This document shows, piece by piece, positions 1 to 7,760 of a stretch of 7,760 nucleotides of DNA. The first letter of the stretch is position 1. Each line of letters begins with the position of its first letter. Source of the stretch: Candidatus Woesearchaeota archaeon (lineage in GTDB: Archaea; Nanobdellota; Nanobdellia; Nanobdellales; CAZNIQ01). The notes under the pieces are model-generated. The model was not told the origin of the DNA. It saw nothing but the letters and a program-made list of their open reading frames with translations, and did no database searches. The position numbers and the translations under genes were made by a program. The stretch covers positions 1 through 7,760 of the forward strand of contig CAZNIQ010000001.1 of NCBI GenBank assembly GCA_964573185.1, written 5' to 3'.

Positions 1-689
1 ACAGCTTCATCAATAGATATTCCATCTGCGATAATCCTGCCACCTTTTATTACAATGATTCTTTCAGCATAAGATGCTACTTTAGGATCATGTGTAACTA
101 CAATTATGGTCTTTCCGTCTCTATGCAACTTCTTAAATAAATTCATTACTATTTTTGCAGATTCTACATCTAAAGCTCCGGTAGGCTCATCTGCTAAAAT
201 TAAATCAGGATCATTTGCTAGGGCTCTTGCAATAGCTACTCTCTGTTGCTGTCCTCCTGAAAGTTCAGAAGGTTTGTGATACAATCTATCTCCAAGACCT
301 ACCCATTCTAATAATTCTTTTGCTCTCTTAATTCTTTTCTTTTTTGGTATTCCTGCAAATATCATTGGTAATTCTACATTCTCTATAGCAGTCAAAGTCG
401 GTATTAAATAAAACATCTGGAAAACAAATCCAATTCTTTTATTTCTTATTTTTGCCAACTGATTATCATTTAATTTAGAGATATCTTTTCCAAAGATATA
501 AACTTTTCCCTTAGTAGGTTTGTCTAGACATCCTATTAAGTGTAATAAAGTTGATTTCCCAGATCCGGAAGGACCCATGATAGAAACGAACTCCCCCTCC
601 TTTATTCTAAGAGAAACATCTTTCAGAGCAATTACCTTCGTTTTTCCTAACTTATACACTTTCCAAACGTTCTCCAGCCTAACAATCAT
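1..689 (-). CDS. ABC transporter ATP-binding protein, LolD/MacB-type (COG1136-like). The 3' end runs off the left window edge.
   Basis: My reverse-complement translation from the ATG at 689..687 reads MIVRLENVWKVYKLGKTKVIALKDVSLRIKEGEFVSIMGPSGSGKSTLLHLIG...FVFQMFYLIPTLTAIENVELP...LSGGQQQRVAIARALANDPDLILADEPTGALD...IIVVTHD. Walker A is GPSGSGKST (549..575) and the ABC signature is LSGGQQQR (240..263). A Q-loop, Walker B (LILADEPT) and H-loop (VTHD) are also present. The frame stays open to position 1, which explains its absence from the ORF track. Confidence 0.93.
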   Translation of the reverse strand, partial: MIVRLENVWKVYKLGKTKVIALKDVSLRIKEGEFVSIMGPSGSGKSTLLHLIGCLDKPTKGKVYIFGKDISKLNDNQLAKIRNKRIGFVFQMFYLIPTLTAIENVELPMIFAGIPKKKRIKRAKELLEWVGLGDRLYHKPSELSGGQQQRVAIARALANDPDLILADEPTGALDVESAKIVMNLFKKLHRDGKTIIVVTHDPKVASYAERIIVIKGGRIIADGISIDEA

Positions 690-712
690 TAAAAAAGTAT
701 ATTACAGAAAAA

Positions 713-720
713 CTTATAAA
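713..720. promoter_or_regulatory. Candidate shared, bidirectional archaeal TATA box in the 52-bp divergent intergenic region.
   Basis: The site reads cTTATAAA on the plus strand and TTTATAAG on the minus strand. Its centre is about 25.5 nt from the plus-strand ATG at 742 and about 27.5 nt from the minus-strand ATG at 689. An A-rich, BRE-like run (agaaaaa, 707..712) lies on the plus-strand upstream side. This spacing would give leaderless transcripts in both directions. The call rests on the motif and its spacing alone. Confidence 0.4.
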
Positions 721-722
721 TG

Positions 723-737
723 GTAAGAAATTCTTAC
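723..737. promoter_or_regulatory. 15-bp perfect palindrome, a candidate operator between the TATA box and the AbrB-like start codon.
   Basis: GTAAGAA-a-TTCTTAC is perfectly self-complementary around a central A at 730. The half-site GTAAGAA recurs at 748..754, inside an imperfect 17-bp palindrome CTAGTAAGAATTTCTAG (745..761) that spans codons 2-7 of the AbrB-like gene. The palindromes are seen directly; their operator function is inferred. Confidence 0.35.
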
Positions 738-741
738 AATC

Positions 742-1020
742 ATGCTAGTAAGAATTTCTAGAGTATCTTCTAAAGGACAAATAGTCATACCTCAAGTAAT
801 AAGAGCAAAATTAAAGATAAAGGAGGGAGATTTATTTCTTTTCATACCATTAAGTCATGATTTAATATTGTTGAAGAGAATAAGTTTTGATACCGAAGAT
901 TATAAGAAATTTACTGAAGAGTTAGTGGAGGAGCTTAAGAAATTGAGAGTACAGATAAAAAAGGAGATAATAGACAAGGCCTTAAAAAACCTAATAAAAA
1001 AGTATCAAGAAAATGAATAG
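742..1020 (+). CDS. AbrB/SpoVT (MazE-like swapped-hairpin) family DNA-binding protein with a charged helical C-terminal tail.
   Basis: The N-terminus MLVRISRVSSKGQIVIPQVIRAKLKIKEGDLFLF matches the SpoVT-AbrB pattern (x-V-x-xx-GQIxIPxxIRxxLxIxxGD). The C-terminal half is a K/E-rich predicted helix. The start is ATG, and the last 8 nt overlap the next gene (1013..1020). Confidence 0.8.
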   Translation: MLVRISRVSSKGQIVIPQVIRAKLKIKEGDLFLFIPLSHDLILLKRISFDTEDYKKFTEELVEELKKLRVQIKKEIIDKALKNLIKKYQENE

Positions 1021-2383
1021 AATTTCTTTAATATTTTCCTTATTTTTAATTCCAGTAGCATTTTCATTGTATTTTGATTTAACAAAAAGCTATACTGTTC
1101 CGAAGATCATAGAACCAAATAAGGACTTTACTTACTTTTTATATTTGGTAAATAACGAGGGCACTCCTGTATATGATGTTAAAGTAAAATTTTATCCCCC
1201 AGAATGTCTAAAGCTTTCCAAAGATGAATACGATATAGATACATTATATAACATATACGTAATTCCTTTAAAAGTAGAAAACAATTGTGGAGAAGGTACT
1301 TATTGGATTGATGCAAAAATAGAATATTACAACAATAAAGGATATCAAGAGATAAAAGAAACGATACCAATAATAGTTACAAGCGTACCTAATATTCTTA
1401 TCAAAAAAGTAGAAAGTAAAAATGCGTATCCCGGTAAAATAGCAAATATAACAGTTTATTTAGATAAAAGGAATGTTTATGATTTGAGAGTTTATATAAA
1501 TAGCACTTGTGTATATCCTAAAACCTCTTATATTTATGTAGGAGATTCTAACAGCTTCTGGTTTGAGGTACATGTACCGTATAGGACCTACGGAATTTGC
1601 CCTATTGTTTTAACATTTGTCTATCAAGATTGGCAAGAAAATCAATATAAAGACGTAAAAGCTATTAGTATAAAGATAAATAAATTGCTGGGAGATGTAG
1701 AATTATATAATTATACTGTAAAAAATGATAATTTGATAATTAAAATAAAAAATAATTGGAATACTAAGATTTATAATGTTCATTTGGTTTTATCCTCTAG
1801 AGATATTTTATTCAAGAAAAGTGAGGCATACATAAAGGAGCTACAGCCTTATCAAATATATGAATTGAGATTTCCATTTATTAAAGATAAAGAAGGTAGA
1901 TTTCTCGTAACAATAAATATGTTTTATACAGATGAAAATGGAAACCTATACAATAAAACATTAGTAATACCGGTTGAAATCTTTAGTAAACCCGATGTAT
2001 TGGTAAAACTTCAGAAGGTAGAAGGAAATGACATTAGATTAATAGTGATAAATTCTGCAAACAGTGATGTAAAATCTTTATACTTAGAACTTTTACCCGG
2101 AGATTATAAAATAATTGGGAGTAGAATTATTTATATAGGGGATCTAGAGGCTAATGATTATGATACTGCAGAATTTAAGATTATACCATTAAATAAAACG
2201 GTTATCTTAAAGTTAAAAGTGTATTTTAAGGATGCTTTAGGCAAAGTACATGTTCTATCTAAAAATATAACAGTTACCTTTCCAGAAGAAAAGAAAAATA
2301 CCTCAATATATTATGCGCTATTGGTAATAGTCCCAGTGATAATATACTTTGTATTTAAGAAGAGAAAAAGAGAGGAAGAATGA
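1013..2383 (+). CDS. Membrane-anchored surface protein with four tandem CARDB/COG1361-like ('S-layer domain'-type) beta-sandwich repeats.
   Basis: An N-terminal signal-like segment (MNRISLIFSLFLIPVAFSL) is followed by four repeats of about 100 aa, at roughly aa 27-122, 123-222, 223-323 and 324-423. Repeat 4 is the clearest: IRLIVINSANSDVKSLYLELLPGDYKIIGSRIIYIGDLEANDYDTAEFKIIP...LKVYFKDALGKVHVLSKNITVTF. A C-terminal TM helix (IYYALLVIVPVIIYFVF) precedes a basic tail, KKRKREEE. There are seven N-x-S/T sequons. The gene overlaps its upstream neighbour by 8 nt and its downstream neighbour by 4 nt. Confidence 0.8.
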   Translation: MNRISLIFSLFLIPVAFSLYFDLTKSYTVPKIIEPNKDFTYFLYLVNNEGTPVYDVKVKFYPPECLKLSKDEYDIDTLYNIYVIPLKVENNCGEGTYWIDAKIEYYNNKGYQEIKETIPIIVTSVPNILIKKVESKNAYPGKIANITVYLDKRNVYDLRVYINSTCVYPKTSYIYVGDSNSFWFEVHVPYRTYGICPIVLTFVYQDWQENQYKDVKAISIKINKLLGDVELYNYTVKNDNLIIKIKNNWNTKIYNVHLVLSSRDILFKKSEAYIKELQPYQIYELRFPFIKDKEGRFLVTINMFYTDENGNLYNKTLVIPVEIFSKPDVLVKLQKVEGNDIRLIVINSANSDVKSLYLELLPGDYKIIGSRIIYIGDLEANDYDTAEFKIIPLNKTVILKLKVYFKDALGKVHVLSKNITVTFPEEKKNTSIYYALLVIVPVIIYFVFKKRKREEE

Positions 2384-3561
2384 AATTATTAGATTTTTTA
2401 TACTTAGCTTTTAGGAATTTACAAAGAAGAAAGCTTAGGTCATGGTTAACTACTTTAGGTATAATTATTGGAATTGCTACAGTCGTTTCTATCGTTTCTT
2501 TAAGTAAAGGGATGGAGAAGGCAATAGTAAGTTCTTTAGAAAAAATGGGAAAGGATAAAATAATGATATTACCTGGTCAAAAATCCTTTTCTCCGGGAAC
2601 TTTATTTGTAGGAAAACCCTTTTCAGAAGAAGATGTAAAGAAAATAGAGAGGTTGCCAGACATAGAATATGTTATTCCAATTACATTTACAACTAAGCAA
2701 ATTATTTTTAAGAATGAAATTTTTCCTACAATTATTTATGCTGTCCCTGTAGATAAGAAAATAGAGGTTTTCGGATATGAACTTTTAGATGGAAGATTTC
2801 TAAGCAAAAATGATAAAAACAAATGTAGAGTTTTATTAGGATATCAAATAGCGAAACACGTTTTTTCAAAAGAAATAGAAGTTGGAGATAAAATTATAAT
2901 TAATAATTACGAATGTAAAGTTGTTGGTATTTTGAAATCAACCGGATCTAGGTTTGATGATTATGCAATATATTTGCCATACTCCTTTGCAAAAGAACAT
3001 CTTGGGATGAAAGATATTAATCTTATACTTGTTAAAGCAGAAGATATTGAAAAAGCTAAAAAGGAATTAGAAAAATTATTAGAAAAAATTAGAGGAAAAG
3101 ATTTTTCTATATTAACTCCAGAACAGTTTATAGAGCAAGTAAAAACTATTCTAAATATTTTATCTTTCTTTGTAACAATCATTGCTAGTATATCTTTGTT
3201 AGTATCAGCTATTGGTATTATGAATACTATGTACATGGCTGTAGTTGAAAGAATAAGAGAAATAGGTATTCTAAAAGCTATAGGTGCAAGGAAAAGGGAC
3301 ATTATGTTAATATTTCTTTTAGAATCAGGTTTGATGGGGCTTATAGGTGGTATTATTGGTACTTTTGTAGGAATTCTTTTATCGTATGTTGCTGAATATA
3401 TAGCTCAAAATATAGGATTAATTATGTTCAAAGCTTACATAGATCCGTTATTTATAATAGGAGTATTAATATTTGCTTTCTTCGTAGGAGTAATTTCTGG
3501 AATTTTACCAGCAAGATCAGCAGCGAACCTAGATCCTGTAAAAGCTTTAAGATATGAATAA
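2380..3561 (+). CDS. ABC transporter permease, MacB/FtsX type (COG0577-like).
   Basis: The N-terminus FRNLQRRKLRSWLTTLGIIIGIATVVSIV provides TM1. A soluble extracytoplasmic domain of about 210 aa follows, then a C-terminal FtsX-type three-helix bundle with the conserved ERIREIGILKAIGARKRDIMLIFLLES motif and the ending LPARSAANLDPVKALRYE. The start overlaps the previous stop as ATGA. GAGG lies about 7 nt upstream. Confidence 0.92.
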   Translation: MKLLDFLYLAFRNLQRRKLRSWLTTLGIIIGIATVVSIVSLSKGMEKAIVSSLEKMGKDKIMILPGQKSFSPGTLFVGKPFSEEDVKKIERLPDIEYVIPITFTTKQIIFKNEIFPTIIYAVPVDKKIEVFGYELLDGRFLSKNDKNKCRVLLGYQIAKHVFSKEIEVGDKIIINNYECKVVGILKSTGSRFDDYAIYLPYSFAKEHLGMKDINLILVKAEDIEKAKKELEKLLEKIRGKDFSILTPEQFIEQVKTILNILSFFVTIIASISLLVSAIGIMNTMYMAVVERIREIGILKAIGARKRDIMLIFLLESGLMGLIGGIIGTFVGILLSYVAEYIAQNIGLIMFKAYIDPLFIIGVLIFAFFVGVISGILPARSAANLDPVKALRYE

Positions 3562-3566
3562 TAATT

Positions 3567-3914
3567 ATGAAGCTTGTTGTAGTCGTTAGAACGGATTTAA
3601 ATATGGGGAAGGGAAAAATTTGTGCTCAGGTTGCACATGCGGCAGTAGAATGTGTTTTAGAAACTTTAAAAAGAAATCCAGAAAAAGTTGAAAAATGGAG
3701 AAATGAAGGAGCTAAAAAAATTGTTCTAAAAGTTAAATCTGAAAAAGAATTAATTAAAATATATGAGAGAGCAAAGAAAGAGGGTTTAGTAACTGTTTTG
3801 ATTAAAGACGCTGGCTTAACACAGATTCCCCCCGGAACTATCACATGTGTAGGAATTGGGCCTGATGAGGATGAAAAAATTGATAAAATTACAGGTCATT
3901 TGAAGTTGTTATGA
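3567..3914 (+). CDS. pth2: Peptidyl-tRNA hydrolase, archaeal/eukaryotic Pth2 type.
   Basis: The protein is 115 aa with hallmark Pth2 segments: KLVVVVRTDLNMGKGKICAQVAHAAV and DAGLTQIPPGTITCVGIGP. It starts 5 nt after the permease stop, and its own stop overlaps the next ATG (ATGA). Confidence 0.93.
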   Translation: MKLVVVVRTDLNMGKGKICAQVAHAAVECVLETLKRNPEKVEKWRNEGAKKIVLKVKSEKELIKIYERAKKEGLVTVLIKDAGLTQIPPGTITCVGIGPDEDEKIDKITGHLKLL

Positions 3915-4291
3915 GTATAGAAGATATTATTACTCAGTTAGAAAAATACAATTTAAAAGGAAAGAAAATTATCATGAGAATTGTATATGAAGACGAAAGG
4001 TTAACAATACCACCATTAGAAAGCGTTACTATCAGAACGAACAACAATACTTTCTTTATTACTAAATCAGAAATCATTTGTGATGAAGGAAATTATGAAG
4101 AACAAGGTGTTTATATTTTATACTCTAAAGGGCATGTTAGGATCATTCATAGAGAGATAGAAGCTAGTCCTTATTTGGGAAGACCGGTTGCAGTAATAAT
4201 TATGAAACTTTCTGAAGTAACTATTCACTATAGCAGAAAATGTTATGAGTTGTTAGGAAATCACTGTGCTTACTTGGACTGTCGTATCTAA
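3911..4291 (+). CDS. Hypothetical protein of 126 aa; I recognise no family.
   Basis: The frame is intact, with an ATGA overlap to pth2 that suggests translational coupling, and composition like the neighbouring genes. A Cys-containing C-terminus reads CYELLGNHCAYLDCRI. No diagnostic motif was recognised. The coding call rests on ORF length, coupling and the absence of a competing frame. Confidence 0.55.
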   Translation: MSIEDIITQLEKYNLKGKKIIMRIVYEDERLTIPPLESVTIRTNNNTFFITKSEIICDEGNYEEQGVYILYSKGHVRIIHREIEASPYLGRPVAVIIMKLSEVTIHYSRKCYELLGNHCAYLDCRI

Positions 4292-4581
4292 ATTATTTTT
4301 ATTGGCCTTCCCTCAATTATTGCTTGAATAATTTTTTTTCTAGCAGAATTTACCAACCTTGAAACTTTTGACCTTGATACTTTCATTTTTTCTGCAGCTT
4401 GTTCTTGTGTTAAACCTTCATAATCCACTAATCTTAAAGCTTCTAATTCCTCTTTAGTTAAAACAATTGGTTCTGCATTTTTTATGGGGACTGGTATTAA
4501 TTGTTGAACATCATATTCAAAAGAGATAAAAACGGGTAGAGGTGGTCTCCCCCTATGTCTGTGCCTCCATCTCCATCCCAT
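4288..4581 (-). CDS. DUF134/UPF0251-family (COG1342-like) putative DNA-binding protein with a sigma-70 region-4-like HTH.
   Basis: The segment IVLTKEELEALRLVDYEGLTQEQAAEKMKVSRSKVSRLVNSARKKIIQAIIEG matches the DUF134 core. I place the start at the ATG at 4581..4579 (MGWRWRHRHRGRPP...), not at the track's TTG at 4596. That ATG overlaps the upstream stop as TAATG. Confidence 0.85.
   Translation of the reverse strand: MGWRWRHRHRGRPPLPVFISFEYDVQQLIPVPIKNAEPIVLTKEELEALRLVDYEGLTQEQAAEKMKVSRSKVSRLVNSARKKIIQAIIEGRPIKII
4293..4303 (+). terminator. Possible archaeal oligo-T termination signal for the plus-strand unit that ends at 4291.
   Basis: The sequence ttatttttatt has a T5 run at 4296..4300, immediately after the TAA at 4289..4291. 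It lies inside the 3' end of the convergent minus-strand gene. The call is based on the motif only. Confidence 0.25.
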
Positions 4582-4952
4582 TATTTCCAACCCCAACCTC
4601 TTCTGCCCGCTTGAATACCTAAAGGTAACTCTCCTTTTTCAGCTTTTACTGCAGCTTCTTTTACTGTAATTGGCGGTGAAGAGAATAATTTAACTCCCGA
4701 TTGTGATAATATAGCATAAGCATTTCCACCAAACTGACCGGCAACAACAGCATCTACATTTTTAGATAATATGAATTGTGCTAGTGCAACACCCTTACCT
4801 TTGCCGGTTATTAATCCCGGATTTTGATATACTTCATAATTTTTGATTTCTCCATTTTCTACTTCAACTATTATTATGTATGGAGCTTGTCCGAAGCTAG
4901 GACTAACTAGTGAATTTAAATCAGGTCCCAAAGATGCTATTGCCACCCTCAT
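4581..4952 (-). CDS. NifX/NifB-C-terminal-like protein (dinitrogenase FeMo-cofactor-binding family, COG1433-like).
   Basis: MRVAIASLGPDLNSLVSPSFGQAPYIIIVEVENGEIKNYEVYQNP...GVALAQFILSKNVDAVVAGQFGGNAYAILSQSGVKLF follows the family pattern (MKIAVAS...VSPHFGRAPYF..V....GEI..., then ..VIAG.IG..A...L...GI.V.). I chose the ATG at 4952 rather than the track's start at 5015. The family normally begins directly at this beta-strand, and the longer version would consume the promoter and palindrome region. The protein carries an unusual C-terminal tail, GRRGWGWK. Confidence 0.88.
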   Translation of the reverse strand: MRVAIASLGPDLNSLVSPSFGQAPYIIIVEVENGEIKNYEVYQNPGLITGKGKGVALAQFILSKNVDAVVAGQFGGNAYAILSQSGVKLFSSPPITVKEAAVKAEKGELPLGIQAGRRGWGWK

Positions 4953-4976
4953 AAGTTTAACATTTTTAATAAGCTT

Positions 4977-5004
4977 TATAAAATTTTCTATAGAAAATTT
5001 TATA
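4977..5004. promoter_or_regulatory. Perfect 28-bp palindrome containing two divergent TATA boxes: a candidate bidirectional promoter and operator.
   Basis: TATAAAATTTTCTA|TAGAAAATTTTATA is exactly self-complementary; I checked it base by base, and pairing fails at 4976/5005. The plus-strand TATA (TTTATATA, 4999..5006) is centred about 25.5 nt upstream of the ATG at 5028. The minus-strand TATA (TTTATAAA, complement of 4975..4982) is centred about 26.5 nt upstream of the ATG at 4952. This predicts two leaderless divergent transcripts. Confidence 0.5.
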
Positions 5005-5027
5005 TATTTTTGCACAAATGTTCAGAT

Positions 5028-5282
5028 ATGCCAAGGGGTTGGTGCTGGTATTGGATACTACAAGGAAAAGTACCAGAAATACAGATAGGAAATCAAAGAA
5101 TACCATTAGTACCCGGAAGAGGAATGGGATGGTTAATATGGTACAGCATGTTAACAGGACAGCAACCTCAAATTAAGGTAACGGAAAAGAACGATATAGA
5201 AGAATTAAAAGAAATAGTAAAGCAACTTGCAATACAAATAGAAGAATTAAAGAGAAGGATTGAAGAATTAGAAAGAAGATGA
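5028..5282 (+). CDS. DUF5320-like small protein: an MPRG N-terminus, a G/R/W-rich middle and a C-terminal coiled coil.
   Basis: The sequence reads MPRGWCWYW...PGRGMGW...EKNDIEELKEIVKQLAIQIEELKRRIEELERR. DUF5320 proteins, as I recall them, start MPRGDGTGP, carry G/R-rich repeats and end in an E/L/K coiled coil. They commonly sit beside DUF134 and NifX-like genes. I chose the ATG at 5028 rather than the track's TTG at 5010. The stop overlaps the next ATG (ATGA). Confidence 0.65.
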   Translation: MPRGWCWYWILQGKVPEIQIGNQRIPLVPGRGMGWLIWYSMLTGQQPQIKVTEKNDIEELKEIVKQLAIQIEELKRRIEELERR

Positions 5283-5659
5283 AATTGCTAAAGGAATTCT
5301 TGAAGGTAAATGCCTTAATTTTTTCCATTCTTTTTATTTTTAATTTAATTCAAACTTTTGTAAATATAGAACAGATTTTAATAAACGTCAATAATATTAC
5401 AGGCATCCTTATTTCAGCAATACTTGGTGGAATTTTAATAGGAAATCCGAGTGTTTCTTATGTAATTGGTTACAAATTATTGAATTTAGGAGTACATCCT
5501 TGCATTGTAGGGACTTTTGTTTTAGCTTGGCTAACGGTAGGATTTCTTAACATACCTATAGAAGCAAAATATTTTGGAATTAAGTTTAGTATAAAGAAAA
5601 ATGCTTTATTCTTTGCGTTAGCAATAATATTTGGAATAATATGCTGGCTGATATATTAA
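5279..5659 (+). CDS. Small integral membrane protein, about 4 TM; half-size permease-like, partner 1.
   Basis: The 126-aa protein has four hydrophobic segments, at about aa 10-28, 40-55, 75-90 and 109-126. Its motif string GNP...YKLL...IP...GIK is colinear with the next gene's. It may be distantly related to the COG0701/DUF318-type 'predicted permease' repeat unit, which I have not verified. It overlaps the upstream gene by 4 nt and the downstream gene by 19 nt. Confidence 0.65.
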   Translation: MKLLKEFLKVNALIFSILFIFNLIQTFVNIEQILINVNNITGILISAILGGILIGNPSVSYVIGYKLLNLGVHPCIVGTFVLAWLTVGFLNIPIEAKYFGIKFSIKKNALFFALAIIFGIICWLIY

Positions 5660-6048
5660 TAAAAACTATACACGATTATTTGAGGATATTTCCATTTATA
5701 GTACTAGCATATATTTTAATTTATCTACTAAGAAAATTTAAAATAAAACAATATGCGAAGAAAGTCAAAAACAAAATACTATTGGCTTACGTTTTAGGGA
5801 TACTTTCTCATGGTCCTATTTACGCATGGTACCCCTTACTGAAGGAATTGGAATTCTCCGAAGAGGAACTTCTAGCTTTCTTTTACTTAAGAGGAATAAA
5901 GCTACCGCAAATACCATTACAAATAGCTTTACTAGGATTAAAGTTAACATTATTATTAAATTCGTATCTTCTTATAGTACCTTTTCTATTTCTTATTAAA
6001 GATTTAAAAAGTATTAAATTAAAGAAAGAAAGTGCTCTTCGGAAATAG
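5641..6048 (+). CDS. Small integral membrane protein, about 4 TM; half-size permease-like, partner 2.
   Basis: The 135-aa protein has hydrophobic segments at about aa 16-30, 46-63, 90-106 and 108-119. Its motif string HGP...YPLL...IP...GLK falls at nearly the same offsets as in the preceding protein. It starts with ATG and overlaps its neighbours by 19 nt and 17 nt. Confidence 0.65.
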   Translation: MLADILIKTIHDYLRIFPFIVLAYILIYLLRKFKIKQYAKKVKNKILLAYVLGILSHGPIYAWYPLLKELEFSEEELLAFFYLRGIKLPQIPLQIALLGLKLTLLLNSYLLIVPFLFLIKDLKSIKLKKESALRK

Positions 6049-6688
6049 AGTTCTATATGCTGGGTGTATGTACAAATTTGCATTGAAGGACAAATTTGAA
6101 GGATACAGAAAGTTACTACAGAGATATATGGATATAATCATCTTGCCAGAAGAATTTTGTTGCGGGAGACCCGTTATGAATTTAGGGTATTTGGATGATT
6201 ATAAAGAGCTCGTTAAAAGGAATTTTGAGCTATTTAAAAAGTACAATGTTAAAGAAATAATTTGTCCTTGTCCAGCTTGCTATAAAACCTTTAAAGAAGA
6301 ATATCCAAAAATACTCGGTAATAAATGGAAAATAAAAGTAAAGCATGTGTCCGAAGTTTTATTAGAATTGGCTAAAAAAGGAAAGCTAAAGAAAAAAGAC
6401 GTAAAGAAAGTTATATATCATAAAAATTGCCATTTAAGGGATACAAATTTTGTAGAAGAATTATTGAAGGAATTAAAAATTGAATATACTATCTTAAATG
6501 GTTGTTGTGGTGCTGGTGGAGGATTTAGAGCAAACTTTCCTGAAATAGCTAGAGAAATAGCTTGGAAATTAACAGAAGGCTTAAGAGGCACCATTCTTAC
6601 TGCTTGTCCAATGTGTTATTATCATTTAAGAGAAAGTACTTGCAGATGTAGGCTGGAAATTTTAGATTTAATTGATATAGTCCTATGA
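6032..6688 (+). CDS. (Fe-S)-binding protein with two CCG cysteine-rich domains; LutA / HdrB / GlpC-like (COG0247-like).
   Basis: There are two copies of the CCG-domain cysteine pattern. The first is C12...C43-C44-G...C78/C80..C83 (FCCGRP...CPCPAC). The second is C133...C158-C159-G...C192..C195 (GCCGAGGG...CPMC). The N-terminus RVLYAGC resembles the usual KVALFxxC start of LutA-type proteins. That supports the GTG start at 6032, since no in-frame ATG precedes this motif. Confidence 0.88.
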   Translation: MLFGNRVLYAGCMYKFALKDKFEGYRKLLQRYMDIIILPEEFCCGRPVMNLGYLDDYKELVKRNFELFKKYNVKEIICPCPACYKTFKEEYPKILGNKWKIKVKHVSEVLLELAKKGKLKKKDVKKVIYHKNCHLRDTNFVEELLKELKIEYTILNGCCGAGGGFRANFPEIAREIAWKLTEGLRGTILTACPMCYYHLRESTCRCRLEILDLIDIVL

Positions 6689-7760
6689 TGAAAGTTCGTT
6701 CTATAAGAGAAAAAGTTCTTGAAAACTTATTTTACTATTTAGATAAAGCTAAAGAAAATTTAGAGAAAAATGGATGTTACGTTTATGAAGCTAAAGATTC
6801 TAAAGAAGCTTTAAAAATAATTAAAGAATTAGTAGGAGAAGAAAAGTTAGTTTTAAAATCCAAAACAAATGTTGGGAAAGAGATACATTTAAAAGAAGAG
6901 TTAAGAAAGAGCGGGATTGAAATAATTGAAACGGATTGTGGTGACTTTATTATAGATTGCTTAGGACTTGAAGGAAATCATCCAGTAATTCCTTGCTATG
7001 GATTAACTTTAGAAAAAATTGCTGAAGGATTGTCTAAAAAATTGGGAGTAAAAGTAGAGCCGAATCCAGAGTCTATAGTAAATGCTGTTAGAAATTATGT
7101 AAAAAGCAAGTTAAATGAAGCAAAAATTGGAATTACTGGAGCCAATGCCATTTCTTCTGAAGGATCTATATTCCTTGTTGAAAATGAAGGAAACATATCT
7201 TTTGTTTCTAGATTGGAAAAGCATATTGTTTTGGCTGGTATTGAAAAAGTAAATCCTACAGATGAAGATTGCATAAAAATATGTAAAGCGCAAGCAGAGG
7301 CATTAGGAATTCCGTGGACTTATATAAACGTTATTTCAGGACCAAGTAAAACAGGAGATATTCCGAATACTATAGTTAAAGGAATGTATGGAGCAAAAGA
7401 AGTACATGTAATTTTCTTAGATAATGGAAGAAGAAAATTATATGAGTCTGAATTTAGAGAAATATTGATGTGTCTTGGATGCGGGGCTTGTCTATTAGAA
7501 TGTCCTGTATTTAATATTCTATTAGGAGAATTGGGATTTGAACATAAAGGAGTAAGAGGAATAATACTACAATTCTTTCAAAAAGAATTAAGTGATATTT
7601 TCAAAAAAGCATATTATTGCATATGCTGTGGGAGGTGTAAGGATAGATGTCCCGTAGAACTAGATATCCCAGAATTAGTAAGAAAAATGAGATATAAATT
7701 AATAAAAGCTGGTTTAGAAACAGAAGTGAACAAAAAAATGATAGAGAAAATAAGAAAATA
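6685..7760 (+). CDS. LutB-like iron-sulfur protein (LUD/DUF162 domain plus a 2x[4Fe-4S] ferredoxin domain, COG1139-like). The 3' end runs off the right window edge.
   Basis: My translation from the ATG at 6685 is open to the window end, about 358 codons. It begins MMKVRSIREKVLENL and contains GITGANAISSEGSIFLVENEGN, the LUD-domain hallmark. Two CxxCxxCxxxCP motifs follow: CLGCGACLLECP (7471..7506) and CICCGRCKDRCP (7618..7653). The start overlaps the previous stop (ATGA). It is absent from the ORF track because no stop lies within the window. Confidence 0.9.
   Translation, partial: MMKVRSIREKVLENLFYYLDKAKENLEKNGCYVYEAKDSKEALKIIKELVGEEKLVLKSKTNVGKEIHLKEELRKSGIEIIETDCGDFIIDCLGLEGNHPVIPCYGLTLEKIAEGLSKKLGVKVEPNPESIVNAVRNYVKSKLNEAKIGITGANAISSEGSIFLVENEGNISFVSRLEKHIVLAGIEKVNPTDEDCIKICKAQAEALGIPWTYINVISGPSKTGDIPNTIVKGMYGAKEVHVIFLDNGRRKLYESEFREILMCLGCGACLLECPVFNILLGELGFEHKGVRGIILQFFQKELSDIFKKAYYCICCGRCKDRCPVELDIPELVRKMRYKLIKAGLETEVNKKMIEKIRK

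Follow-up and report, generated by a model that had tools for sequence, protein, structure and literature searches.

The window analysed here, positions 1 to 7,760 (7,760 nucleotides) of contig CAZNIQ010000001.1 from a Candidatus Woesearchaeota archaeon (assembly GCA_964573185.1), carries two divergent sets of genes separated by a dyad-symmetric promoter/operator. On the minus strand lie the gene for a NifX-like protein of 123 aa with a Nitro_FeMo-Co domain (4581..4952, ATG at 4952; PF02579, 69.5 bits) and, second of the pair and having 1 nt in common with it, the gene for a DUF134 helix-turn-helix (HTH) regulator of 97 aa (4288..4581, ATG at 4581; PF02001, 80 bits), which is also called as a gene in L001, is kept in the nearest relative, L003, and additionally matches a sigma-70 region 4-like HTH. 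The plus strand encodes a DUF5320-like small protein of 84 aa (5028..5282); memA (5279..5659; 126 aa, ~4 TM segments by hydropathy) and memB (5641..6048; 135 aa), the halves of a split ArsP_1 (PF03773)-type permease; a cytoplasmic LutA/HdrB-like protein of 218 aa with two CCG domains (6032..6688); and a LutB-like protein with a LUD domain and an HdrC-like 2x[4Fe-4S] domain (6685..7760, where it leaves the window). The contig reaches 1.2 kb beyond the window, and the LutB-like gene ends there at window-equivalent position 7815, giving a full-length protein of 376 aa that terminates in EFFCC.

Gene packing and the divergent promoter

Read directly from the sequence, all four plus-strand start/stop overlaps are present: ATGA at the DUF5320-like stop and memA start (5279-5282), 19 nt between memA and memB (5641-5659), 17 nt between memB and the CCG gene (6032-6048) and ATGA again between the CCG and LutB-like genes (6685-6688). 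The GTG start of the CCG gene at 6032 is consistent with homologues beginning M..MLFGN.LYYPGC. A TATA-like AT-rich stretch lies upstream of 6032, as is expected by chance in 30% GC DNA. L003 keeps the first two junctions, the first as GTGA (9932-9935) and the second as an overlap of 19 nt (10294-10312). The plus-strand genes of this DPANN-type archaeon are indeed arranged as a co-directional, tightly packed set; start/stop overlaps are, however, frequent in compact prokaryotic operons, and those seen here show tight packing, not conservation of a five-gene unit. The initial annotation had taken the five genes for one translationally coupled unit, of which the four overlaps stand, but the five-gene linkage is, among the loci compared, confined to this contig. 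The overlaps argue for probable co-transcription across the memB/CCG boundary in this organism, although an internal promoter would also be compatible with the 17-nt overlap at that point.

The symmetric divergent promoter that had been proposed is borne out by a dyad with arms of 32+32 nt (4959..5022) and a perfect 13+13 core, ATAAAATTTTCTA and TAGAAAATTTTAT, at 4978-5003. Each half contains a TATA-like box facing outward, the site is found just once in the window and in L001, and the L003 dyad keeps its perfect 13+13 core by means of a mirrored substitution. Gene callers extend the NifX-like gene across the dyad to a GTG at 5015; the extension (4953-5015), however, falls within a region ~92% identical to L003 at the DNA level and carries the symmetric compensatory change, and both features favour a non-coding stretch. 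DUF134 may bind the dyad and co-regulate both divergent operons, and transcription from this promoter is predicted to be leaderless.

The split permease and its usual neighbours

The DUF5320-like protein is rich in Gly and Trp at its N-terminus and forms a coiled coil at its C-terminus, and its Pfam match is sub-threshold (E=0.0023; 19.5 bits vs a cut-off of 27); in L107 (60.7 bits) and L140, bona fide DUF5320 genes precede the split permease at the equivalent position. Neither memA nor memB matches Pfam directly. Homologues of the two are PF03773 (ArsP_1) proteins of half size, which upholds the earlier reading of a split permease, and the two family profiles match each other, so that memA and memB are homologous halves. 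Of the domain calls first made from the sequence, those for the CCG, LutB-like, NifX-like and DUF134 proteins hold, whereas DUF5320 is reached only below threshold and the membrane pair only via homologues.

The memA family comprises 199 representatives among 1.84 billion proteins, and 23 of the 149 listed representatives (23 fusion clusters) are NifX-memA fusions whose N-terminal domains match the NifX-like protein of the window down to E=4e-18. For memB, which carries the invariant SHGPIYAWYP motif, there are 61 homologues, mostly ~170-aa PF03773/YraQ proteins; the last ~16 residues of the window protein are without counterpart in L003. The two genes form an adjacent pair in 56 of 78 metagenome loci, most commonly with a 4-nt overlap. 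Among the 34 permease loci that are well flanked, NifX genes occur in 17, DUF134 in 13, DUF5320 in 12 and MinD-type ATPases in 10, the last figure agreeing with a link between NifX/DUF134/DUF5320 clusters and Mrp/MinD ATPases that the initial annotation had named. A DsbD-like/thioredoxin (Trx)-fold neighbour is found in eight, with direct adjacency in three and, in L107, the order DUF5320-DUF134-memA-memB-Trx/DsbD-like; because several are near-duplicates, these eight loci represent roughly four or five lineages.

The CCG/LutB-like pair and the genes beyond the window

The CCG protein carries two PF02754 domains, each with an intact CX(n)CCX(n)CXXC motif (C12-x30-CC-x35-CxxC and C133-x24-CC-x32-CxxC), and 68/68 complete homologues likewise have the two motifs. 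Its best NCBIfam matches, the TfrB C-terminus and LdhH, are all below cut-off. The LutB-like protein combines the LUD domain with two CxxCxxCxxxCP motifs, and its structure model (pLDDT 84, with the last ~15 residues a low-confidence coil) matches the folds of Bacillus subtilis LutB (9a6l_B, TM 0.85), LutC (2g40) and HdrC. The CCG protein of the window has no hydrophobic segment, and such segments were found in 0/68 CCG proteins and in 1/75 LutB-like proteins. Homology to the LutA/LutB type, as originally claimed, is sound, with identities of 29% (CCG protein to YkgE) and 31% (LutB-like protein to YkgF) to the Escherichia coli proteins. However, the LutB-like protein scores 270 against a TIGR00273 cut-off of 444.8 and is without the DUF3390 C-terminus; in its place stands a tail, [LFMIW][YF]CC, that is invariant in 75/75 complete relatives and in the best 120 database matches (120/120) but missing from YkgF. 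The pair is best read as putative HdrBC-like redox machinery, not as a lactate utilisation system.

A lutC gene had been expected just past 7760. Instead, the LutB-like gene is followed by a gene for a 285-aa DsbD/CcdA-like membrane protein with two Pro-Cys motifs and then by one for a signal-anchored secreted protein. The membrane protein has no direct match in Pfam or NCBIfam, but aligns at 32% identity (E=2e-28) with the TM domain of a relative that is fused to Trx and scores above the Pfam DsbD_TM cut-off; members of the family share the NPC and E[IL]PC motifs of TM1 and TM4 with little or no variation. The contig stops within the last gene, leaving an 89-aa fragment of a membrane-anchored protein whose putative Trx-fold identity rests on one short motif common to the fragment and its full-length relatives, which have a CPHC thioredoxin-fold domain.

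Among 80 loci sampled around LutB-like genes in DPANN/CPR genomes, a CCG gene is nearby in 67, a DsbD-like membrane protein in 58 and a Trx-fold protein in 52, and all three occur together in 48, in several permuted orders; in the closest LutB-like relative, at 54% identity, the genes run LutB-Trx-TM-CCG. In 27 loci the Trx-fold partner and the membrane protein are fused, and in ~25 more they are adjacent; in 53 of 55 Trx-bearing proteins a hydrophobic segment precedes the CxxC. In 20/80 loci the LutB-like gene stands with the CCG gene only or alone, so the relay partners are non-obligatory neighbours. The CCG/LutB-like pair looks like the cytoplasmic Fe-S part of a membrane thiol-relay module widespread in ultra-small archaea and bacteria, of which we found no published description. 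Permease, DUF5320, NifX and DUF134 genes are near the LutB-like gene in none of these 80 loci, and the permease lies next to a CCG/LutB pair in none of 158 other loci (the 80 plus the 78 permease loci). L003 has the DUF134/NifX genes, the conserved dyad, DUF5320 and the split permease, but at the equivalent site the CCG/LutB pair and the DsbD-like gene are absent, and DNA similarity to L003 stops at the memB 3' end, as expected for a rearrangement junction. Among all these loci, the direct linkage of DUF5320 and the permease to CCG/LutB is thus found in this contig alone.

Two proposed modules, rival readings and known systems

We consider it probable that two separately conserved modules have here undergone a lineage-specific join, both being linked elsewhere to one DsbD-like/Trx hub. 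Module A (4288-6048) comprises the NifX-like/DUF134 operon and the divergent DUF5320-like gene, memA and memB around their common dyad promoter/operator. The two permease halves would assemble into one transporter, with the NifX-like protein docking on its cytoplasmic face to give or take a ligand, which may be a metal-sulfur species. Module B, which extends from 6032 to about 8969 (window-equivalent), comprises the CCG, LutB-like and DsbD/CcdA-like proteins and the putative Trx-fold protein and would act as a transmembrane thiol-disulfide relay whose cytoplasmic partner is an HdrBC-like Fe-S module, not thioredoxin. Electrons could pass from the LUD site through the two [4Fe-4S] clusters to the CCG clusters; dithiol/disulfide exchange would then carry them to the Cys pair of the membrane protein and on to the external Trx-fold protein, and the invariant Cys-Cys tail of the LutB-like protein may serve as a swinging shuttle. 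We lean slightly towards outward (reductive) flow, because every component runs that way in known systems. Against such a relay, we know of no DsbD system with an Fe-S partner.

The foremost alternative, though an unlikely one, is oxidative folding, with the CPHC protein acting like DsbA, the DsbD-like protein substituting for DsbB/VKOR without quinone, and the CCG clusters oxidising its dithiol, in the way that TfrB oxidises thiols, while electrons exit via the LUD site to a small acceptor. CPHC, present in 38 of the 52 Trx-fold partners, is the motif of E. coli DsbA and of MdbA, DPANN and CPR organisms, as far as is known, largely lack quinones and c-type cytochromes, and the CCG protein has its best NCBIfam match in TfrB, a thiol-oxidising enzyme. 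In addition, CPR genomes are enriched in MdbA-like oxidoreductases, with VKOR adjacent in only 88/750 (PMC6744442). However, the Trx-fold domain of this family is small and glutaredoxin-like, without the DsbA helical insert, and weakly matches YruB and MJ0307-type proteins. Since MJ0307 is reducing although its site is of the CPHC type, the potential cannot be read from the motif. To our knowledge all characterised DsbD/CcdA proteins carry electrons outward, and the LUD site would have no known acceptor.

Next, and likewise unlikely, all eight components might form one integrated machine for membrane export, import or maturation of metal-sulfur or thiol-reactive species, making the join functional. 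The permease has independent links to the DsbD-like/Trx family (8/34 loci), to MinD-ferredoxin ATPases and, through fusion, to NifX; the CCG/LutB pair has these DsbD-like/Trx partners as well; and the genes are co-directional here, spaced by overlaps or a 33-nt gap. Nonetheless, CCG/LutB and the permease are together only in this contig, the L003 site is without the former and without the DsbD-like gene, similarity to L003 ends at the memB 3' end, and the eight linked loci shrink to the few lineages noted above.

It is quite improbable that lactate or another 2-hydroxy acid is imported by the permease and oxidised, under regulation, by the LutA/LutB-like pair. The homology is true, and the Lut-like genes run in the same direction as the permease, with an overlap between them; yet the equivalog score and C-terminus depart from LutB, L003 has the permease without the pair, and ArsP, the characterised PF03773 member, exports organoarsenicals rather than importing carboxylates. 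Moreover, LUD_dom was not found among the recurrent families of 121 neighbour proteins from the 80 related loci, although lutC could lie elsewhere in the genome, off this contig. Since the permease-CCG/LutB link is unique to this contig and lutC is absent from it, there is little support for the proposed regulated uptake and oxidation of a small organic acid. The other original reading, a membrane-associated redox system, comes closer, but the membrane partner conserved with the Fe-S pair is not the permease; it is the DsbD-like gene, which lies beyond the window. Least probable of all is that the DsbD-like protein is an ordinary LysE/SfLAP/ArsG-type small-molecule exporter with a metabolic link to CCG/LutB. 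In its favour, 17/22 family members match Pfam SfLAP, a transporter family of the LysE/DsbD clan, and not DsbD_TM; the best NCBIfam match, to the ArsG efflux permease, falls far short of the cut-off; and a profile search matched no solved structure. Against it, the Pro-Cys motifs are conserved, one fused member passes the DsbD_TM cut-off, and fusion or adjacency to a secreted CxxC thioredoxin-fold domain is a hallmark of DsbD-type relays.

Both modules resemble known systems in part. Orange-protein (ORP)-type clusters of anaerobes such as Desulfovibrio contain a NifX-like ORP, Mrp/MinD Fe-S ATPases, DUF134 and DUF5320; the window has the NifX-like, DUF134 and DUF5320 set in divergent operons, and MinD-ferredoxin ATPases adjoin the split permease elsewhere (10/34 loci), but the ATPase is absent in the window and L003, and the split permease and thiol-relay module are attached. 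As for ArsP (PF03773, ArsP_1/YraQ/UPF0718), memA/memB relatives match either half of its 294-position model, whereas the window permease is two genes of the ~130-190-aa class without Pfam match, and the split family lacks a conserved cysteine, has the invariant SHGPIYAWYP and forms NifX-like fusions. With LutABC/LldEFG/YkgEFG the locus shares a two-CCG LutA-like protein, a LUD plus 2x[4Fe-4S] LutB-like protein and the gene order A then B; it differs in being without LutC (also near relatives) and the DUF3390 region, in its C-terminal Cys-Cys, in scoring under the equivalog cut-off and in its conserved DsbD-like and secreted Trx-fold neighbours. Module B is like DsbD/CcdA relays (CcdA-ResA, CcdA-Etrx-MsrAB, ScsB) in that its membrane protein has two TM helices with a single Pro-Cys motif apiece and is fused to, or neighbours, a signal-anchored thioredoxin-fold domain with a CxxC, but its conserved cytoplasmic neighbours are Fe-S proteins (CCG and LUD/ferredoxin) rather than thioredoxin, its membrane protein is closer to SfLAP than to DsbD_TM, and its hosts are DPANN/CPR, which are not known to have c-type cytochromes. 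Finally, the CCG/LutB-like pair, with best family similarities to TfrB, LdhH, GlpC, HdrB and DsrK, shares with HdrBC/TfrB/DsrK the two complete CCG motifs and an HdrC-like 2x[4Fe-4S] domain in the partner. Unlike those systems, it has a LUD domain in place of HdrA, TfrA or a membrane cytochrome as electron donor/acceptor, and its presumed thiol substrate would be a protein Cys pair (in the membrane protein or the CC tail) and not CoM-S-S-CoB; DsrK offers a precedent for a CCG domain acting on the C-terminal Cys arm of a protein.

Gene content of the window and of its nearest relative

The window is AT-rich (~30 % GC) and archaeal, as it encodes an archaeal-type Pth2; this protein, the archaeal neighbours within the nearest relative (L003) and best matches in Aenigmatarchaeota and Nanobdellati point to a DPANN-type affiliation. 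On the plus strand, a DUF5320-like ORF (5028-5282), memA (5279-5659), memB (5641-6048), a gene for a protein with two CCG domains (6032-6688) and a LutB-like gene encoding a LUD domain and two 4Fe-4S motifs (6685 onward) follow one another. The four overlaps that had been claimed for this string, i.e. ATGA, 19 nt, 17 nt with a GTG start, and ATGA, are exactly those obtained by reading the ORFs, and the ORF coordinates together with Pfam and NCBIfam matches thus confirm the gene string and its junctions. Among the domain labels of the initial annotation, CCG, LUD/4Fe-4S and, on the minus strand, Nitro_FeMo-Co and DUF134 are borne out by Pfam/NCBIfam, whereas the DUF5320 and permease labels have no above-threshold match in the window proteins. 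The DUF5320-like protein has only a sub-threshold match (PF17253, 19.5 bits vs a gathering score of 27), and MemA and MemB, which belong to no Pfam or NCBIfam family, are without a Pfam match even at E<=10.

The start of the window is taken up by a MacB-type ABC system that is unrelated to the CCG/LutB-like or permease genes. It consists of an ABC ATPase gene running off the window start (3-689, minus strand), whose product is the sole P-loop protein of the window, and of plus-strand genes for a 92-aa AbrB/MazE-like protein (742-1020), a 456-aa signal- and TM-anchored protein that matches no Pfam family (1013-2383) and a MacB_PCD/FtsX permease (2380-3561); the plus-strand genes overlap by 8 and 4 nt. 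The Pth2 gene (3567-3914, plus strand) overlaps by 4 nt a gene for a 126-aa protein without a family (3911-4291, plus strand), and the stop of the latter runs into the 3' end of the DUF134 gene, which is convergent with it. This neighbour is kept beside Pth2 in L003 (137 aa), and both versions terminate in ...DCRI.

The nearest relative is a 124-kb NCBI contig that also carries S-layer, RNase P p29, GatD and ATP-dependent DNA ligase genes. It is syntenic with the window from Pth2 through DUF134, NifX-like, DUF5320-like, memA and memB (the last five hereafter module A), with GTGA and 19-nt overlaps conserved. DNA similarity ends at the 3' end of memB; window MemB has ~16 extra C-terminal residues relative to L003, and it is their codons that overlap the CCG gene. 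Past memB, L003 goes on to the gene for ribosomal protein S11, which is on the opposite strand, and the CCG/LutB pair is missing at this site. Conversely, family HMMs run over the whole ±7 kb found memA, memB, DUF5320, NifX and DUF134 at 0/80 loci with LutB-like genes. The five-gene operon, which had been presented as a unit, is therefore lineage-specific rather than conserved. A foreign origin for the CCG/LutB-like genes and those beyond them (module B) finds no sign in base composition, as GC is 0.26-0.32 throughout and module B is not set apart. Elsewhere on the L003 contig (5969-8194), FakA-like, PlsY (G3P_acyltransf) and DegV genes stand in a row, i.e. bacterial-type fatty-acid/phospholipid genes on an archaeal contig.

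The CCG/LutB-like pair and its membrane partners

Within the CCG protein, PF02754 matches in two stretches (E=1.2e-19), with Cys motifs at residues 12/43/44/80/83 and 133/158/159/192/195, and both CX(n)CCX(n)CXXC motifs are complete in the window protein and in 68/68 complete homologues. The protein is 29 % identical to YkgE, and its best curated similarities are to TfrB, LdhH, GlpC, HdrB and DsrK. The LutB-like protein has LUD and Fer4 domains, and its AlphaFold model (pLDDT 84, pTM 0.84) superposes on B. subtilis LutB (9a6l_B, TM 0.85); the LUD domain of the model matches LutC and eIF2B/ribose-1,5-bisphosphate isomerase folds, and the Fe-S domain matches HdrC (5odc_I, 8rwn_C). Based on the complete CCG motifs, the TfrB/HdrB-type similarities and the HdrC fold match, the pair is a predicted HdrBC-like thiol:disulfide module joined to a LUD domain. 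As to length, the window LutB-like protein is without ~45 N-terminal residues of most relatives (~420-425 aa; alignment over window 6685-6830); a few other short forms (375-392 aa) are known. The CCG protein, at 218 aa, falls short of most of its relatives by ~20-30 aa.

The initial annotation had raised the uptake and oxidation of a small organic acid (here the lactate reading) as one reading of the locus and predicted lutC just past 7760. An ENA contig identical to the window contig (L001; window coordinate = L001 + 1918) reaches 1.2 kb further and completes the LutB-like protein at 376 aa, with the C-terminus ...EFFCC. After a 33-nt gap lies a gene whose 285-aa polytopic membrane product shows the motifs 'DSINPC' and 'ELPCTG' (DsbD-like, see below), and this gene is overlapped by 4 nt by one for a signal-anchored protein that is cut by the contig end; the contig's own putative thioredoxin-fold (Trx-fold) partner is thereby reduced to an 89-aa N-terminal fragment. 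No lutC lies in the 1.2 kb of contig past the window, where the DsbD-like membrane gene and the secreted-protein gene occupy its expected place. Moreover, phmmer found no second LUD ORF, and LUD_dom was not among the 25 commonest Pfam families (each in at least two proteins) in 121 neighbour proteins from 80 loci, a ranking in which a single LUD-only neighbour would go unlisted. The discriminating prediction therefore counts against the lactate reading, as does the LutB equivalog model, TIGR00273, which scores 270 bits vs a cut-off of 444.8 (model positions 38-385 of 432). DUF3390 is also missing among the Pfam matches of the full-length LutB-like protein (P0064).

The LutB-like protein has thousands of relatives, and the best 120 are largely from DPANN archaea where the organism is named. 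A scan of one genome per species yielded 80 loci that span Aenigmatarchaeota, Woesearchaeota, Pacearchaeota, Iainarchaeum, Micrarchaeales and many Patescibacteria (CPR). The pattern-based locus search reaches only relatives in which the chosen peptide motifs are retained. ORFs were taken by simple longest-ORF calling, families were assigned by purpose-built, domain-limited Trx and TM profiles, and a neighbour was a gene within four genes; the resulting counts are lower bounds, since many loci are cut by contig ends. A CCG gene lies near the LutB-like gene in 67/80 loci, a member of the DsbD-like membrane protein family in 58/80, a Trx-fold CxxC protein in 52/80 and all three in 48/80. The CxxC of the Trx-fold neighbour is CPHC in 38 loci, and in 27 loci the membrane protein carries the Trx-fold domain as an N-terminal fusion. 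The commonest orders are Trx/TM-CCG-LutB, LutB-Trx-TM-CCG and LutB-CCG-TM-Trx, the second of these being that of the closest relative of the window LutB-like protein (54 % identity). Such permuted gene orders are the signature of a predicted functional module.

Other genes recur at these loci. A membrane-anchored winged-helix regulator (DUF7343) is a neighbour in 34/80; this DUF7343/MarR-like protein is ~150-175 aa and often divergent (e.g. L018 6357-6836, minus strand; L029 4498-4974, plus strand), and the sequenced stretch of the window contig has no DUF7343-type gene. An AMP/thymidine-phosphorylase-family gene (~496 aa) adjoins CCG-LutB in six CPR loci (L041, L044, L045, L059, L060, L065) and is also found at L092 5554-7050, beside the closest archaeal relative. 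L092 has, in addition, an IF-2B/ribose-1,5-bisphosphate-isomerase-family gene nearby, which is of the same fold class as the LUD domain.

In the membrane protein family, P72-C73 (TM1) and P198-C199 (TM4) are invariant or nearly so among 22 aligned members, including the window-contig protein. The latter has no Pfam or NCBIfam match; of the 22 relatives, 17 match SfLAP and 2 match DsbD_TM/DsbD_2. A Trx-fused relative in L029, 32 % identical to the window-contig protein (E=2e-28), reaches 28.0 bits against DsbD_TM (cut-off 27.1). The family profile had no match among PDB sequences, and curated NCBIfam models name no membrane or Trx component of module B. A hydrophobic segment lies N-terminal to the CxxC in 53/55 Trx-bearing proteins and is present in 0/68 CCG proteins and 1/75 LutB-like proteins, which argues for a topology with the Fe-S proteins inside and the Trx-fold outside.

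Another constant of the family is its C-terminus. The ending [LFMIW][YF]-Cys-Cys-COOH occurs in 75/75 complete LutB-like relatives in loci L012-L091 and in 120/120 best database matches; that of the window protein is encoded at L001 5840-5897 (window-equivalent 7758-7815), and in the model it sits on a low-confidence, predicted flexible coil. In MerA and insect thioredoxin reductase, vicinal cysteines at the C-terminus serve as mobile shuttles for redox or metal transfer, and the CCG protein DsrK acts on the C-terminal arm of DsrC as its substrate. From the invariance of the coil-borne cysteines and these precedents, we infer by analogy that the tail may be a shuttle that swings from the CCG site to the membrane Cys pair and back.

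The split permease, its divergent partners and their promoter

Sixty-one homologues of MemB are detectable, mostly ~170-aa proteins carrying PF03773 (ArsP_1/YraQ), and on bacterial contigs the memB-type gene is preceded by a memA-like one (~140-165 aa), the two usually overlapping by 4 nt. The PF03773 matches of MemA and MemB homologues are often weak or under the 32.3-bit cut-off. An exhaustive profile search among 1.84 billion proteins recovered 199 representatives of the MemA family, vs 2 by word-indexed search. Relatives of memB were located at 78 metagenome loci; memA and memB are adjacent at 56 of these, with a 4-nt overlap at half of the junctions (28/56). BLASTP gave no match between MemA and MemB; their profiles match each other, and the two are therefore homologous halves. 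The term 'split permease' in the initial annotation was thus apt, and the arrangement is recurrent. C75 is the sole Cys in the conserved core of MemA and is Ser in L003.

Among 149 MemA-family representatives listed, 23 are NifX-MemA fusions (~252-269 aa; e.g. P0197, P0212), in which an N-terminal Nitro_FeMo-Co (NifX-like) domain precedes a C-terminal MemA-type half-permease. Their N-terminal domains match the window NifX-like protein down to E=4e-18, and the fusions thus tie together the window's two divergent operons. At 34 loci with at least 8 ORFs (exemplars confirmed by Pfam, several metagenome loci being near-duplicates), the split permease is accompanied by NifX-like in 17, DUF134 in 13 and DUF5320 in 12. 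A MinD/Mrp-ferredoxin ATPase is present in 10/34, in keeping with the link of such clusters to Mrp/MinD-type ATPases given in the initial annotation; an Mrp/MinD-type Fe-S P-loop ATPase is absent from the window, L001 and the L003 locus. In position and architecture, the window DUF5320-like gene matches the genuine DUF5320 genes that precede memA in two of the permease loci, L107 (60.7 bits) and L140.

In 8/34 permease loci (~4-5 lineages) there is a Trx(CxxC)/DsbD-like protein from the family encoded just past the window, and in 3 of the 8 it directly adjoins the permease. The order is DUF5320-DUF134-memA-memB-Trx/DsbD-like in L107, and DUF5320, DUF134, NifX, MinD-ferredoxin, memA, memB, NifX, Trx-like, DsbD-like in L115. 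Hence, in the other loci examined, the DsbD-like/Trx pair has links both to the permease module and to the CCG/LutB pair, but these two never occur with one another, and the window contig is the only place seen with permease, CCG/LutB and DsbD-like genes all strung together. (L123, considered as a second permease + LutB locus, was rejected, its match being only a ferredoxin/MvhD-like protein.) Because both gene sets are separately tied to the DsbD-like/Trx pair and all are joined here, the join may be more than accidental; that the permease and CCG/LutB genes form one integrated machine is nevertheless an unlikely reading of this lineage-specific arrangement.

Between the NifX-like ATG (4952) and the DUF5320-like ATG (5028) lies a 32+32-nt dyad with a perfect 13+13 core (4978-5003). 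The dyad region is ~92 % identical to L003, vs 66-73 % protein identity for the adjoining MemA and MemB, and the L003 core is kept perfect by a mirrored substitution, AAAATTTT becoming AAAAATTT on one arm and AAATTTTT on the other. In each half, an outward TATA-like box stands ~24-27 nt from the respective start codon. This arrangement suggests divergent transcripts without leaders and a candidate site for a dimeric regulator, most simply DUF134. The dyad is unique in the contig and does not recur ahead of the CCG or DsbD-like genes, and Rfam and tRNA scans of the window gave no matches. Gene callers start the NifX-like gene at GTG 5015, within the dyad; the ~92 % DNA identity and the symmetric compensatory change favour a probable start at ATG 4952, with a non-coding operator at 4953-5015.

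Proposed working and comparison with known systems

Module A would be a DUF134-regulated transporter built of two half-permeases, with which a cytoplasmic NifX-like ligand carrier would cooperate. Module B would be a transmembrane dithiol/disulfide relay leading from the external Trx-fold protein to the TM Cys pair and on to the cytoplasmic CCG clusters, with the CC tail perhaps shuttling between the latter two, and thence to the two [4Fe-4S] clusters and the LUD site; along this path, flow could go either way. DPANN/CPR organisms are, to our knowledge, without quinones and respiratory chains, and every component of module B, as far as we know, runs outward (reductive) in known systems. LutAB oxidises a substrate, HdrBC reduces disulfides and DsbD exports electrons, and the CcdA-Etrx-MsrAB system of S. 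pneumoniae is a non-cytochrome use of a CcdA-type relay. An inward direction, i.e. oxidative folding, is suggested by the DsbA-type CPHC motif of the Trx-fold protein, although that motif is not decisive, given that MJ0307-type CPHC proteins are reducing. Further in favour of inward flow are the thiol-oxidising TfrB as best match of the CCG protein and the shortage of VKOR beside CPR oxidoreductases, CPR genomes being enriched in MdbA-like oxidoreductases that mostly lack an adjacent VKOR (PMC6744442).

Whichever the direction, we tentatively propose, as a possibility held at rather less than even confidence, that the CCG/LutB, DsbD-like and CPHC Trx-fold proteins make up a previously undescribed transmembrane thiol-disulfide system that works without thioredoxin or quinone and is the main extracytoplasmic disulfide machinery of DPANN/CPR organisms, with an HdrBC-like module wired to a LUD site, a CC tail as mobile shuttle and, here, coupling to a NifX-linked split permease in one transcription unit. 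The full-text literature searched contains no account of a module that combines CCG, LUD, DsbD-like and Trx proteins, nor of what DUF5320 and DUF134 do, and DsbD flavinylation systems (eLife, PMC8238504) are a different module. In hundreds of DPANN/CPR genomes, genes are annotated as encoding 'LUD domain-containing' or 'lactate utilization' proteins; if these LutB-like genes encode the cytoplasmic end of a thiol relay, lactate oxidation is over-called in metabolic reconstructions of these symbionts. How DPANN/CPR organisms oxidise or reduce the cysteines of surface proteins (pili, adhesins) becomes a testable question, and an Fe-S (HdrBC-like) partner of a DsbD-type transporter would newly connect cytoplasmic metabolism with extracytoplasmic thiol chemistry. 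The NifX-permease fusions and the dyad operator, for their part, offer a concrete entry point for the long-uncharacterised NifX-like/DUF134/DUF5320 clusters. The wider interest is in the module exposed, not in the lineage-specific five-gene string.

ArsP binds trivalent organoarsenicals through a conserved cysteine pair, which has no counterpart in the MemB alignment, where no Cys is invariant. Relative to ORP-type clusters, the window locus is without the Mrp/MinD ATPase. Compared with LutABC, the window CCG protein has the two CCG domains of LutA, yet the LutB-like protein has neither the LutB equivalog assignment nor the DUF3390 C-terminal feature and the window contig encodes no LUD-only LutC subunit, such that a pair homologous to LutA/LutB lacks two of three membership features; furthermore, E. 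coli YkgF ends in ...QEKKNG, without the Cys-Cys of ...EFFCC. The two Cys motifs and the HdrC-like dicluster ferredoxin partner of HdrB-type CCG modules are both present in the CCG/LutB-like pair. With DsbD/CcdA transporters, the membrane protein family shares one Pro-preceded Cys in each of two TM helices and, in 52/80 loci, an extracytoplasmic CxxC Trx-fold partner. However, the electron donor of DsbD/CcdA is cytoplasmic thioredoxin, whereas gene context here points to the CCG/LutB-like Fe-S proteins as the candidate counterpart. Module B is rated as a putative DsbD-type relay with an Hdr/Lut-type Fe-S partner.
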